Assembly: GCA_963662405.2 (NCBI GenBank) | Contig: CAXXKT010000001.1 | Coordinates: 160,001-224,000 of the forward strand | Source: Syntrophales bacterium | GTDB lineage: Bacteria > Desulfobacterota > Syntrophia > Syntrophales > UBA2210 | Direction: 5' to 3' | Length of the DNA stretch: 64,000 nucleotides | Part shown: piece after piece, positions 1,860-6,546 of the stretch | How the letters are laid out: each line of letters opens with the position of its first letter | Numbering within the stretch: the first letter of the stretch is position 1 | The notes under the pieces: model-generated | What the model was told of the DNA's origin: nothing | Seen by the model: only the letters and a program-made list of their open reading frames with translations | Databases searched by the model: none | Translations under genes and position numbers: made by a program

Positions 1860-1939
1860 CGGGATAGAGGATTTATGAAACTTTAAACACAGCATAACAC
1901 CATAATATCAATGGTAAATATAGATTATGTTACGTATAG

Positions 1940-2006
1940 GTAGGTGCAAGATGTGAGGTCCGGTGTAGCAGGGGCAGAGCTAGTGTTTGGTTGCGCTGTG
2001 CTTCCT
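1940..2006 (+). repeat. Copy A of a diverged ~67-bp direct repeat
   Basis: 1944-2006 aligns ungapped with 5351-5413 at 49/63 identities (hand count). Confidence 0.85.
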
Positions 2007-2054
2007 GTTGTCAAGCTTCCAGTTAAGAGGGTTGTGCTTTATTACAAACGGTAA

Positions 2055-2151
2055 TGGTTGACATACTGTAGTGCCGTTGGGAAACCAAGTGGAAAACGGA
2101 GTAAACAAGTCTAATCAACATGTAGAATCGAGAGAAAACGGTCTATTTGAC
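2055..2151 (+). mobile_element. Probable degenerate group II intron 3' end (extended domain VI remnant)
   Basis: GGGAAACCAAGTGGAAAACGGAGTAAACAA...GAGAAAACGGTCTATTTGAC resembles, from memory, the GGGAAACCAGGCGGCAAACGGAGAAAACAAAC...GGTCTACTCGAC end of bacterial group II introns; no domain V or RT ORF seen. Confidence 0.5.
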
Positions 2152-3048
2152 GCAATCCAATCCCAAGTGATGGGAAAAGTATTGTCGCTCCGCTAACAGG
2201 TTCAGAAAAGTCGCCACTTCTTCAAATACATCACGGGATATCTCGCCTCTTACGATACCATGAAGATGAAAATGAACATCCCGATAAATTTTGTCGGTAG
2301 ATGAAATCCGATCATAGATTCTCCTACCGCTCCGACTTGCCACCTTGGGATCGTTTTTCGATTGAATGATCAGTGCGGGTATGGACAAAGCGGGAAGAGC
2401 CCCGTATACTTTTTTCATTAACGCCTTAACTTGAACGATGCTCCTGACGGGACAACGGTGATAGTTGATATGCGGGTTGTCAGGATGATTGGCAACAAAA
2501 TCCCTGCGCATGCGTTTAATGCCCATGACGCGAAGCAACCTATTCCACTGGTCAAGCATTTCTGCAAAACAGGAAGAGATGCCCTTAAACTTCAGAGGAG
2601 CATTGACAGAAATCACCGCCGCAAATGCTTCGGGATTGCTGAGAGCTTGATACAGGGCCAACCCGGCACCGGTTGAGAAACCGGCCACAATGATTTGATC
2701 GCAGCAGGTTTTCAGGATGGCGTGTCCACGGTTTACGGACTCAACCCAATCTTCATAGCTGCGCTGTGACAGATCGACTGCTGAAGTTCCATGACCTGCC
2801 AGCCGGGGTGCATAGACAGTATACTCTTGGGAATATAAAAAATCTGCCCATTCACGAACCTCCTCCGGTGCGGCCATAAGACCATGAATCAGGAGCACTC
2901 CCCGATTTGTCCCCTCATGATTAAGCAGATAGGGCTCCCCAATATGACGGCCCTTTGTTTCCCCTGCCAGGAAGTGTTCTTTATAATCCCTTTCAAAAAG
3001 CAGAGATTCTTGGTGGATAAGTCGCTTACATTCGGCTGAGACCAACAT
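2143..3048 (-). CDS. Alpha/beta hydrolase (carboxylesterase/monoacylglycerol lipase-like)
   Basis: LLIHG, PRLAGHGT, GFSTG nucleophile elbow, NDPKV, C-terminal His. Confidence 0.85.
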   Translation of the reverse strand: MLVSAECKRLIHQESLLFERDYKEHFLAGETKGRHIGEPYLLNHEGTNRGVLLIHGLMAAPEEVREWADFLYSQEYTVYAPRLAGHGTSAVDLSQRSYEDWVESVNRGHAILKTCCDQIIVAGFSTGAGLALYQALSNPEAFAAVISVNAPLKFKGISSCFAEMLDQWNRLLRVMGIKRMRRDFVANHPDNPHINYHRCPVRSIVQVKALMKKVYGALPALSIPALIIQSKNDPKVASRSGRRIYDRISSTDKIYRDVHFHLHGIVRGEISRDVFEEVATFLNLLAERQYFSHHLGLDCVK

Positions 3049-3109
3049 CGTTATTGAAGACCTTGTGCTAATGCCTGAATGATCGGTTTATTCAAAATCT
3101 TTAATGCCA

Positions 3110-3760
3110 CTAGGCGATCTTTTGGAAATAGACGATGTAAATCATCGCATAGTGAAGCCCACTTCCGATCAGAACCATGACGTGAAACAGCTCATGAAAG
3201 CTGAAGATTCCTGGAACAAGCTTCGGTTTCTTTATTGCATAGATTAAACCGCCCAGTGTAAAAAACGCCCCACCGGTAAATAACAAAATCCCTGGCACGA
3301 GGGTCATGGATGGCAGCATCTGTTTAATCGGAATGAGCGAGAGACAGCCCATGATGAAATAAATAATGAAATAAAGAACTCTAGGTGCCCGAGGGAAAAA
3401 AAGTTGAGAGACAAGACCGAATCCCACAAGTCCCCACTGGACTGCAATCATTGACCAACGCCAAGGACCATCTAGGTACATATAACAGACAGGCGTTGAA
3501 GTTCCGGCGATCATGCAAAAGATGGCGAGGCGGTCCATTCTTCTCCAGAAAGACAGCTCATTTTCCCTTTTCTTGAAGGCGTGGTAAAGTGAACTCGCTA
3601 AGAAAAGAAAGATCACTGAGCTCCCATAAATCAATGCAACAATCAACGCTGCAATCGAATAGCATGCGACTATCACTAAAAATACAGTGCCGACCACCGC
3701 CGCAATGACGCCTACCAGATGTGAATAGACATTAAAAGCTTCCTGGATTCTTATGCGCAT
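3110..3760 (-). CDS. Hemolysin III / PAQR family membrane protein
   Basis: EAFNVYSH, ASSLYH, RRMDRLAIFCMIAG, HELFHVMV; about 7 TM segments. Confidence 0.9.
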   Translation of the reverse strand: MRIRIQEAFNVYSHLVGVIAAVVGTVFLVIVACYSIAALIVALIYGSSVIFLFLASSLYHAFKKRENELSFWRRMDRLAIFCMIAGTSTPVCYMYLDGPWRWSMIAVQWGLVGFGLVSQLFFPRAPRVLYFIIYFIMGCLSLIPIKQMLPSMTLVPGILLFTGGAFFTLGGLIYAIKKPKLVPGIFSFHELFHVMVLIGSGLHYAMIYIVYFQKIA

Positions 3761-4045
3761 GATTCTTTCCTTTTATCTGGTTTGCTTTGCCAGCAAAGGG
3801 GATTTTTGATGTCAGACCCGATAAAAAAAACTACCATAGCAATCTGTCCATCACATCTATACCACATGTTAATTTAGAATACTGTCATTTTACATTGCTT
3901 AATGCAGATAATTCGTTGTCACTGTATGAAAGTAATTCCATGGACTATATGACCTGAATATTTTATATCCAAGTCGAGATCTTTCAATCCGCAATCATCA
4001 GTATGCGAAGTTTTCAAGGATATTTGTTTGTAGATACCGTTCTTG

Positions 4046-5014
4046 TCAAGCGAAAGCTGGTTTATAATTTGGGTCATACTTTTTGCCGGATTTCAGGATT
4101 CCAAAGATAAGGTGCACCAGCTTCCTCATTATCGCACAGACAATCACTTTCCCGTTTTTTCCTTTCTCTTTAAGGCGATTATAAAAAGCAATCATAACGG
4201 GATTACATTGGATCGATACCAGTGCCGGCATATACAGAGCTTTTCTGAGCCGCGCATGTCCGATTTTGCATAACCTGGGTTTGCCTTTAATAGATGATCC
4301 TGAAAGTGTTTCCCGTGGCGCAAGCCCGATGAACGCCACCAGTTCCCGCACATGACTGAATTTGTCCAGATCATCCAATTCTGCCAGGATGTGAGGAATG
4401 GTTGCCGTGCCGATACCTGGAATGGAAGCCAAGAGCCCTTTCTTGTTTTTCAGGTTCGGATCCCGATCAATTAGATCAGCAATCTGTTCCCTGATTTTCT
4501 CTATTTCCTTATCAAGATAGTTAATGTGTTCTCTGATCAATGGAATAACTGATTCATGAGCTGCACTTATTCGATTCTTCTCCTGACTTCGCATGTTGAT
4601 CAGACTGTCAACTCGCCTGACCAACGCCCTCAGGGCTCTGATCTCCGGTGAGGGTGGACTCCAGGGATCTGGTCTCATAGCCAGACAGAATCTGGCAATC
4701 AAGGCTGCATCAATCTTATCCGTCTTGGTGCGAATCAACTCGCTCTGGCCAAACCCTTTGATGCGAGCGGGATTGACAACACTGACCACATGGCCGGTTT
4801 CATGGAGATAGATCGCCAATTCCTCTCCATAGTTGCCGGTCGCCTCAAGGCAGGCATGTACCTTATGAACTCCCTGTCTCTCCAGCCAGATCGTCAGTGT
4901 CTCAAAACCTTCCACCGTATTTTTGCAGGTTTTGTGTTTTGTCTTCCCCTCTACAAGAAGTGCAACGTCGAATTTCTGTTTTGCGATATCTATCCCAAGA
5001 ACCGATACTGACAT
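4046..5014 (-). CDS. IS110-family transposase/recombinase, apparently intact (322 aa)
   Basis: DEDD tetrad (GIDIAK, LEATG, KTDKIDA), SIPGIG, catalytic Ser in LSGSS, LRKALYMPA, AIMRKL. Confidence 0.97.
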   Translation of the reverse strand: MSVSVLGIDIAKQKFDVALLVEGKTKHKTCKNTVEGFETLTIWLERQGVHKVHACLEATGNYGEELAIYLHETGHVVSVVNPARIKGFGQSELIRTKTDKIDAALIARFCLAMRPDPWSPPSPEIRALRALVRRVDSLINMRSQEKNRISAAHESVIPLIREHINYLDKEIEKIREQIADLIDRDPNLKNKKGLLASIPGIGTATIPHILAELDDLDKFSHVRELVAFIGLAPRETLSGSSIKGKPRLCKIGHARLRKALYMPALVSIQCNPVMIAFYNRLKEKGKNGKVIVCAIMRKLVHLIFGILKSGKKYDPNYKPAFA

Positions 5015-5061
5015 ACTACAATACTCCCTCGTACATTAATCTAATCTCCAGTAAAATAGCT

Positions 5062-5266
5062 TCGTTCGAATCAACCTTGCAAGTGCAAACTCATTCCCAT
5101 CTGAGAAGGTTTATGATACCGTACGAGTTATTGAACAAAGCTGTGGGAAGAGGATCTACTCTACAAATCATGCTCTCTGGCATCAGGTGAAACACAGATT
5201 CACTCTCCCCATTTTACCCCAGTGTCTCAAGATCTCTTATATCTCCTAATCCCCTTCTAGAACACA
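5062..5266 (-). ncRNA. Predicted IS110 bridge RNA (ends approximate)
   Basis: Non-coding left end contains target guides TTTCACCT (5185-5192) and TTTGTAG (5161-5167) inside a stem/internal-loop/stem, and donor guides ACGGTATC (5115-5122) and GCAAG (5076-5080). Confidence 0.82.
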
Positions 5267-5356
5267 AGGTGAAACACAGATTCACTCTCCCCATTTTACC
5301 CCAGTGTCTCAAGATCTCTTATATCTCCTAATCCCCTTCTAGAACACAAGGTGAAA
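5185..5356. repeat. Exact 82-bp tandem duplication of the IS110 left end (2 units plus 8 bp)
   Basis: AGGTGAAA recurs at 5185, 5267 and 5349; units 5185-5266 and 5267-5348 are identical by eye. Confidence 0.95.
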
Positions 5357-5413
5357 AGTGTGAGATCCGGTATAGTAGGGGCAGATCGAGTGTTTTGCTG
5401 CACCATTCTTCCT
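5349..5413 (+). repeat. Copy B of the diverged direct repeat, interrupted by IS110
   Basis: Removing the IS restores GTAGGTGAAAAGTGTGAG, versus GTAGGTGCAAGATGTGAG in copy A. Confidence 0.85.
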
Positions 5414-6093
5414 CCTTGATACAATTCAAATTGAAGCAATTGTCAAAGATTGTTTTCAGGAAGGGTTTGCCCTGACCAAAGGAGTCCTCGGCCCAAAAGG
5501 ATGGAACCCGGAAGCCGATTAAGACGGGTAGATGGTAAATCCTGCTTGGACATTGTTATTGGTTTTGAAGACCCTCGACAGAAAGAATGCAAGCCCACCT
5601 GAAAAGGCTCAAGCTAAGACCAAGGCGGGAGTGATGGGGTCCGAAATATGCTTTCGCGGTGTGTTAAGGTGGCATTTATCATCTTGATATGAAATGACTT
5701 TCTCGACATGATATATGGTCACATATCCACTGGCTGACGGTCTTGACACTCCTTCCTGCCCGTTTCCATATCCTGGGTTAGGCCTTTTTTTCAAAGAAAA
5801 GGCTTGATTATCTCAAAACGCGAGTATAACTTTATTTGGAGGATGTTGTGTATTTCAACAGTTCTAGAAAATATCTGACTCAGAGGTTCCTATAGCGAAA
5901 TATCCAAGCCCCATTTCTCGCAATAGAGAGGATGGGTTTTGTGTTTTCAGGAGGACTCCTTGCCCGATCAGCGGGTAGGAAAGGTCAGGTGAATTAAGGT
6001 GAACGTTTTTTATGCGTGCGGTGCGCATTGGACACTTTGGAGTGCTCGCGCAATCGAATCGAAAACCATGTAGGACATCAGAGGAGAGGATAC

Positions 6094-6546
6094 ATGAAAA
6101 TCTTCAGATTCACTTTGACGGTCTGGGTGGCCCTGATGCTGTTGATGTTTGTTGCAGGGGGTACCGCCGTGGCGGAAGCAGGGTCCCTGCAGGATGACTA
6201 TGAGATAGTTATCAGGGACAGCGTCAACTGGTTTGTGATGCTCAATCATGTCGAAACGGATAACAACCTCATCAGGTACAAGGGAATTCTGTTTTACACT
6301 TATAGCGGCAGAGACATTCAGGGCGAGGCCAAAGCGGTTTATAATGCAAACCCCGACGTCTTGACCATCCAGTGCGAAGACACCTACGATGAGGCCGAGC
6401 CCGACATGATGGCTTACGGGTTTGTGTTTGACACCACAACGTCGAGACATATGCGGGGCGGGTGGGCCTATCTCAAGGCAAAGTGGCAGGGAGGTACCGC
6501 GGCGAGATTGATCAAGGGCACAATCGGTACGCATAGCGCCGATTGA
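6094..6546 (+). CDS. Hypothetical secreted protein (150 aa)
   Basis: GAGGAGAGG RBS; signal peptide MKIFRFTL...AVAEA; no family recognised. Confidence 0.7.
   Translation: MKIFRFTLTVWVALMLLMFVAGGTAVAEAGSLQDDYEIVIRDSVNWFVMLNHVETDNNLIRYKGILFYTYSGRDIQGEAKAVYNANPDVLTIQCEDTYDEAEPDMMAYGFVFDTTTSRHMRGGWAYLKAKWQGGTAARLIKGTIGTHSAD

Follow-up and report, generated by a model that had tools for sequence, protein, structure and literature searches.

An IS621-type IS110 element of a Syntrophales bacterium with guides tuned to a dispersed CACCTAC site

The window, i.e., the whole 64,000-nucleotide stretch of Syntrophales DNA that was analysed, contains an IS110 element whose non-coding left end repeats parts of its own flanks. 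This raises the question of how far the insertion site is specified by those guide-like sequences, and what kind of DNA the site itself is. A sequence-only reading of the window had proposed an IS621-type bridge RNA whose guides can be decoded against the insertion site. The motifs on which that reading was built were all found on the minus strand, each where it had been placed: TTTCACCT at 5185-5192, TTTGTAG at 5161-5167, GCAAG at 5076-5080, TTGACA at 4044-4049, and ACGGTATC at both 5115-5122 and 4033-4040. Our preferred reading, to which we assign a probability of about 0.8, is that this is an intact IS621-type IS110 with guides tuned to a CACCTAC site, and that the site is itself a protein-driven crossover point that serves as a safe landing place.

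The ORF at 4046-5014 (minus strand) encodes a 322-amino-acid IS110 DEDD recombinase, with Pfam domains PF01548 and PF02371 both above cut-off. In a phmmer search against solved structures it matched IS621 (8wt6; E 2e-83) and ISCro4 (E 3e-82), the sole solved relatives found, and its residues D9, E57, D99, D102, and S238 align with the IS621 catalytic residues D11, E60, D102, D105, and S241 (PMC11208158). Judged by its sequence, the element is an intact IS621-type IS110, and its bridge-RNA part simply adds a member to the IS621 group; since the IS621 architecture has already been published (PMC11208160), that part is not new.

Five full copies occur in the genome, four with protein identities of 99-100% and one of 95%, together with one left-end remnant. 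All five have a CT core at each end without target duplication beyond the core, and the orthologue flanks agree. The outer flanks first read for the window copy were confirmed as TTTTCAC-CT (core 5350-5349) and CT-ACAAA (core 4033-4032). Around CT, the sites of the five copies are TTTTCAC/ACAAA, TTTTCAC/ACAAC, ATAGCAC/ACTAC, CTTTCAC/ACTAC, and TCTTCAC/ACTAC. The suggestion that other copies might lie at TTTCAC-CT-ACAA is thus right for the centre, because the four further copies share CAC-CT-AC, but not for the outer bases, which vary. A scan of genome contigs yielded 80 loci, about 50 of them close relatives, mostly from Syntrophaceae, Syntrophales, Smithella, and delta proteobacteria; the viral contigs searched contained no relative of the element. 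Eleven further places in G000 hold distant IS110-family copies with 25-33% identity, nine of which are seemingly one multi-copy element.

A bridge RNA of about 175 nt is predicted at 5055-5229 (minus strand) from an alignment of 32 left ends, their consensus fold, and pair counts; we infer both of its ends. The consensus fold comprises a long stem, an internal loop with the left and right target guides (LTG and RTG), and an inner hairpin. This target loop emerges unaided, whereas RNAalifold puts some of the guide bases in the donor loop into pairs, and the pair test for that loop covered only the closing stem and the inner hairpin. Over 31 named pairs in four helices, 99.4% of 990 cells were paired, and 11 of the 31 pairs exhibited two-sided changes. 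None of 500 shuffles was as high as the observed pairing, a test that relatedness among the sequences can inflate, and slid controls were 44-51% paired. The two-loop fold that the sequence-only reading had proposed emerges from the alignment but not from the window copy by itself, whose left end alone folds no better than shuffles (z 0.03). Keeping all four guides unpaired in this copy costs 6.8 kcal/mol. An Rfam scan of 3800-6100 gave one chance-level match (E 2.1) and no bridge-RNA family.

The right end of the element (4032-4049, minus strand) consists of TTGACA at 4044-4049, the left-donor arm ACGGTAT at 4034-4040, and the core CT at 4033-4032. The TTGACA, which had been read as pointing toward the circle junction, is conserved: it keeps a 12-nt distance from the core end in 49 of the 55 right ends matched. 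The -10 that the junction would place at 17 bp is weak, however, averaging 3.7 of six positions across orthologues and reaching only three of six in the window copy (TCTAGA). A better match, an extended -10, is located some 25 bases within the left end, and an RNA starting from it would be about 175 nt long; this candidate internal -10, at 5236-5244 (minus strand), reads TATAAG in the window copy and TGnTATAAA in most orthologues and is just upstream of the predicted RNA start. A promoter and terminator scan returned three promoter-like sites where 2.7 were expected, none at the left end, and no terminator. The circle-junction pattern had no match in metagenome contigs, and contigs from four sequencing runs included neither a circle-junction nor a duplication joint.

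The four guides are all on the minus strand. The LTG, GTTTCACCT, at 5185-5193, is unpaired in the consensus fold and covaries with the left flanks; the RTG, GATTTGTAG, occupies 5161-5169 and adjoins the target-loop handshake AG at 5159-5160 (5159-5169 overall). The left donor guide (LDG), ACGGTATC, at 5115-5122, matches the element's own right end. The right donor guide (RDG) is discontiguous, AC-TT-GCAAG at 5076-5084, and adjoins the donor-loop handshake GT at 5074-5075 (5074-5084 overall); it pairs against CTTGTGT. The motifs originally picked out as guides are thus real, but the LTG, RTG, and RDG are each longer than had been recognised. The right donor guide of IS621 is likewise discontiguous (PMC11208160). 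When the 252-nt left end was dinucleotide-shuffled 3000 times, the LTG 8-mer arose 12 times, the RTG 7-mer 134 times, and the LDG 8-mer once. Any two of these three were found together once in the same shuffles, and the 5-nt RDG alone was common (966).

Guides and targets covary. Forty loci have both flanks and guides; dropping 12 same-genome loci to keep one per genome left 28, which gave 272 matches compared with 255.1 ± 5.1 when permuted (p = 0.002). The left side alone gave p = 0.004 without wobble and 0.075 with wobble, and the right side alone 0.048 and 0.005, respectively. The LDG equals the element's own right end (LD) in 42 of the 46 loci having both parts; the four LDG/LD differences are mismatches, and donor-guide covariation is not seen among these 46 loci, which vary little. 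The distal two nucleotides of the RDG pair with donor positions 13-14 in all 48 of 48 loci, one of them with a compensating change. For the handshake, donor-loop GT goes with target AC in 43 loci, and AT goes with target AT and LTG AT in two; the two AT variants are 84% identical and probably represent one event. The handshake of the window copy has one Watson-Crick pair before exchange and three after, which equals the IS621 count, and in IS621 the handshake rule is a bias toward the post-exchange state and thus insertion (PMC13626964). With the catalytic residues intact, the two-loop RNA supported by the alignment, guides and targets covarying, and the handshake bases fitting, the proposal of an IS621 bridge-RNA architecture was upheld.

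By analogy with published IS621 work, the element would excise to a circle, and the ~175-nt left-end RNA would pair with the donor junction and with the target around the CT core. The DEDD/serine recombinase would exchange strands at CT, and the handshake would bias the reaction to insertion (PMC13626964).

How much of the site the guides decode is another matter. They are indeed complementary to the insertion site and covary with it, but the match to natural sites is loose, with a median of 10 of 14 non-core positions over 40 loci, and the site is therefore not fully decodable from the guides. What the sequence-only reading missed is that the target is the centre of a larger site, and that the left end of the window copy carries an 82-bp tandem duplication. 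We examined 58 loci, 49 with a right flank and 47 with a left; removing near-duplicates left 44 and 45, respectively. The site consensus is TTATTGATTT-CACCTAC-AAATCAATAA plus GATTAC-N5-GAAA ~36 bp away (+35 to +37 in right flanks), and the sequence common to natural sites extends well past the bases covered by the guides. In this Syntrophales-centred clade, what the guides are tuned to is the 7-bp spacer CACCTAC together with the adjacent arm bases, and the target is a dispersed intergenic site of ~65 bp, a 10-7-10 inverted repeat with an arm-like motif to its right.

In the window, the left half of the target (5349-5363, minus strand) consists of a degenerate left arm, CAC, and the outer core CT at 5350-5349; the right half (3982-4031, minus strand) has its right arm at 4020-4029 and the distal motif GATTGCGGATTGAAA at 3982-3996. 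This right half scores 16.3 on a position weight matrix trained without own-genome copies. The matrix for the distal motif was trained on 41 non-own right flanks. The motif holds 13.4 bits versus 2.4-5.8 at 16 non-overlapping control offsets and 9.8 at one overlapping offset; its leave-one-out score is at least 5 in 37 of the 41, and the five own copies score 8.8-19.0. The motif accompanies 22 of the 265 empty CACCTAC sites of the genome.

Many sites also have the motif CAGGAAGAA recurring 15-75 bases left of the core in either orientation. A second, degenerate copy of the site is present in the window at 2040-2091 (minus strand), just past a hydrolase gene, with the core CACTTGG and the distal motif CATTACCGTTTGTAAT; its homologue in G195 has CACCTAG. 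In one relative, L010, the guides have changed (RTG GTTTGAAAG), and the right flank reads CTTTCAATCGG, the reverse complement of the end of the distal motif. L010 may thus have switched its target to the opposite end of that site; its contig stops 10 bases later.

Is the distal motif read? It was found at 39 of 40 insertions, where an intergenic guide-only null predicts 23.8 and none of 200,000 simulations was as high, with one genome and a crude ORF model standing as proxy for all hosts and with the loci being related. We consider the odds about even that a second targeting determinant beyond the guides is real. Guide-only targeting combined with survival is itself a toss-up: the recombinase would read just the 14-16 bp around the core, insertions elsewhere would be lost, and the motif would be there only as a by-product of guides that have adapted to a repeated intergenic element. 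Seven of the eight intergenic empty sites of the own genome with at least 10 of 14 matches to the guides of the window copy do already have the motif, and for IS621 a 22-bp donor and reprogrammed 14-bp targets suffice (PMC11208160). The sole insertion without the motif, L004, has a 12/14 guide match, which again fits. What such targeting does not predict is the excess of 39 over 23.8, or the position of copy C, which sits at a motif site with only an 8/14 match despite 19 motif-less intergenic sites that match equally. More speculatively, and we think this possible but doubtful, the site could belong to an undescribed Desulfobacterota gene-module system, integron-like or pdif-like, in which a protein at the arms or at the ~36-bp motif licenses insertion at loosely matched sites. 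If so, bridge-RNA targeting would have a protein-assisted second layer, and a new cassette system would be parasitised by two unrelated mobile elements; its sites would form same-strand arrays near defence and signalling genes, with as many as dozens of them in a single genome.

An exact 82-bp tandem duplicate of the left end lies at 5267-5348 (minus strand), joined at the LTG-coding TTTCACCT. It is identical to 5185-5266, and of the genome's copies only the window copy is duplicated and consequently has two left junctions. Eight bases common to the flank and the LTG-coding DNA bound the duplication, and the most likely origin is a recombination or slippage event in which the flank TTTCACCT and its identical counterpart in the LTG-coding DNA took part. 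The LTG DNA necessarily makes a perfect left half-target, and thus self-insertion followed by deletion, half-match recombination, or slippage would all yield such a duplication; half-match recombination has been reported for IS621 (10.64898/2026.08.31.748434). Among 48 loci with enough left flank, a like junction (83 bp, at LTG DNA) occurs in L016 and L017, which are one element in two assemblies (80% protein identity).

We judged it unlikely that the duplication is an assembly artefact. Single contigs from runs X1 and X3 do span 5163-5271 and 5081-5273, respectively, unbroken at the expected branch and with no joint listed, and the duplication-junction pattern had no match among metagenome contigs, but contigs drop low-depth loops, and a like junction is present in both assemblies of L016/L017. 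Tandem non-coding repeats beside IS110 genes are, moreover, on record (10.64898/2026.08.14.744561). The expanded IS110 loci described there resemble the window copy in having such a repeat beside the recombinase gene; their repeat boundaries are mostly left-donor matches, whereas here the boundary is the element's own left-target-guide DNA (10.64898/2026.08.14.744561).

Two other places in the genome touch on this subject. A divergent solo left-end remnant (71% identity) at G000 C1:761866-761951 lies at a TCTTCAC-CT flank; it has no distal motif after it and is thus not evidence for a scar from the inner junction. At G000 C3:390683, the left side of a site ends in ACGGTAT-CT like the right end of the element, and the IS body is absent, possibly reflecting a donor half-match event.

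Sites at which tyrosine recombinases cross over have inverted arms around an asymmetric spacer of 6-8 bp. The consensus of the target site is a 10-7-10 dyad, and it has just such inverted arms around the 7-bp spacer CACCTAC. The best near dyad is core-centred in 33 orthologue sites, and when 48 empty sites of other genomes were pooled with four own-genome loci, the dyad scored 1.06 at zero shift and no more than 0.38 at six other shifts. We infer that crossover would take place at this site in a protein-driven system, probably of the tyrosine type, by which accessory-gene modules are joined, and that the element may use it as a harmless multi-copy landing place, in the way that REPs serve IS621 and attC serves the IS1111-attC group.

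A competing reading makes the site an aberrant integron attC or a REP-like hairpin that is recognised, in the manner of ISPpu10, while folded as a single strand. A far dyad is present between the core region and the distal motif, genes in 10 fetched loci mostly point toward the side of the distal motif, L095 and L099 have attC-like hairpins after the motif, and a few sites do fold (L032, z -3.2). We nevertheless regard this as very improbable. The 40 reconstructed empty sites as a set do not fold, with mean folding z values of -0.29 and -0.32 and only three and one below -2, and the hairpin model of the target, be it attC, REP, or ISPpu10-type, is rejected on those values. Integron attC sites have conserved AAC and GTT triplets in their outer boxes; no such triplets are conserved in the position profiles here, and the modules, 1.5-5 kb in length, frequently contain several genes. 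The genome had no match to a dif-like pattern.

The empty site belongs to the hosts: its pattern was found in 11 of 41 relatives with no control match, and in 39 of 401 phylum genomes, with up to 46 exact matches and one control match, the sites mostly being grouped on one strand; all five other phylum genomes containing the IS at 69% identity or higher carry the site. Neighbouring sites within 20 kb are on the same strand in 19 of 21 cases in the own genome, and near-identical left halves are joined there at the core to different right halves. In G153, G195, and G001, where the IS is absent, the segment that lies right of the window IS starts directly at the core and has three different left neighbours; in G016 it lacks its first 98 bases. 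The far end of this module does not stop at a core in G153, G195, or G016. Alignment ends at -220 and +200 pile up as much as at the core, in a test on 36 hand-chosen sites that counted reciprocal matches twice and in which 8 of the 29 core ends are IS ends. Genes near the sites include TIR, OLD, restriction-modification, Mrr, and signalling genes. Within the window, the stretch 2143-3760, encoding a haemolysin-III-related membrane protein and an alpha/beta hydrolase, is a module between two cores and is 86-93% identical in four family genomes.

A second CACCTAC core of the window, at 1940-1946, is joined to the terminal repeat CTATACGTAAC of an element with two tyrosine recombinases (junction at 1929-1946, minus strand). 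Its tandem ORFs are at 125-1039 and 963-1859, and it has 11-bp terminal inverted repeats and a 7-bp core. CACCTAC forms one boundary of the element; its other end, just outside the window, abuts IS copy C, whose left flank supplies the second bounding sequence, CACCT (the element also spans C1:159788-160000). A relative in G433 duplicates CACCTAC at a site bearing the distal motif. Relatives were found in 15 other phylum genomes of 400 and in 7 of the 38 other site-bearing genomes; with so few of the latter, the element looks like a second visitor. A cognate recombinase of the site was searched for in site-bearing genomes and none was found; G128, with 23 exact sites, contains only two Xer-sized recombinases, one phage-like integrase, and a fragment. 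That the IS110 recombinase and its bridge RNA themselves shuffle the modules, with CACCTAC conserved as the guide-paired core, is highly improbable: the 5-7 bp that do not vary coincide exactly with the positions where the guides pair best, half-match recombination has been reported for IS621 (10.64898/2026.08.31.748434), and close IS relatives were found only in site-bearing genomes, but the arms and the distal motif lie outside the guide footprint and show dyad symmetry, 33 of the 38 other site-bearing genomes have no close IS match (assemblies often lose IS), and the tyrosine-recombinase element duplicates the full 7-mer.

Both the IS1111-attC group and the IS1202 family (dif/pdif) home to site-specific recombination sites of other systems. 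The element described here differs from them in having an IS110-type left-end RNA, and its site does not appear to fit either the attC or the dif consensus. Homing of IS110/IS1111 elements to REP, attC, or transposon ends is known (PMC11208160, PMC11187229). With IS621, the element shares a DEDD and serine recombinase, CT cores, a ~175-nt left-end RNA with target and donor loops, a right donor guide that is discontiguous and forms a G-T pair at position 12 of the donor, and the handshake change from one to three pairs (PMC11208160, PMC11208158, PMC13626964). Unlike IS621, it has other target guides, the RTG being able to extend 7 bases past the core; its natural sites tolerate about 4 mismatches in 14, and a dyad site without a hairpin takes the place of the REP target; the weak junction -10, the conserved internal extended -10, and the left-end duplication of the window copy are further differences. 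ISPpu10 is similar in being an IS110 with natural sites that have something in common beyond the bases paired by the guides, but its extra determinant is a GC-rich target stem-loop established by experiment, whereas here the feature is an A/T-rich motif ~36 bp off, without a hairpin and with a putative role (10.64898/2026.03.19.712850).

A literature search, with supplements and most subscription papers outside it, yielded no description of the site or the clade, and Supplementary Data 2 of PMC11208160 may contain the clade's 14-bp motif. The site is apparently an undescribed short repeated DNA, and it looks like a gene-shuffling junction in anaerobic bacteria. On its own, the bridge RNA contributes only a further orthologue whose right guide is naturally long; more is to be gained from the target, as about 40 natural insertions expose a phylum-wide repeated site that appears to mark accessory-gene module junctions. 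The site makes it possible to test whether bridge recombinases use non-hairpin determinants outside the guide-paired bases, a question relevant to the control of off-target activity, and it may show by what route defence islands are put together in these anaerobes.

Two smaller repeated features accompany the sites. In L095 and L099, the attC-like hairpins, as read by eye, start ~5-10 bases after the distal motif, suggesting that integron cassettes also accumulate beside the site. A dispersed element of ~220 bp, with 63 nhmmer hits of which 19 are near full length, often starts at the CACCTAC core; it is present at G000 C1:158330-158549, 306354-306566, and 1415562-1415781 and at ~60 other places, and it precedes defence genes. 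Within it are TTGACA-17-TAGAGT, an SD-like stretch rich in purines, a mini-frame of the form ATG-NNN-TGA, and a terminator; it is possibly a promoter plus a small RNA or attenuator.
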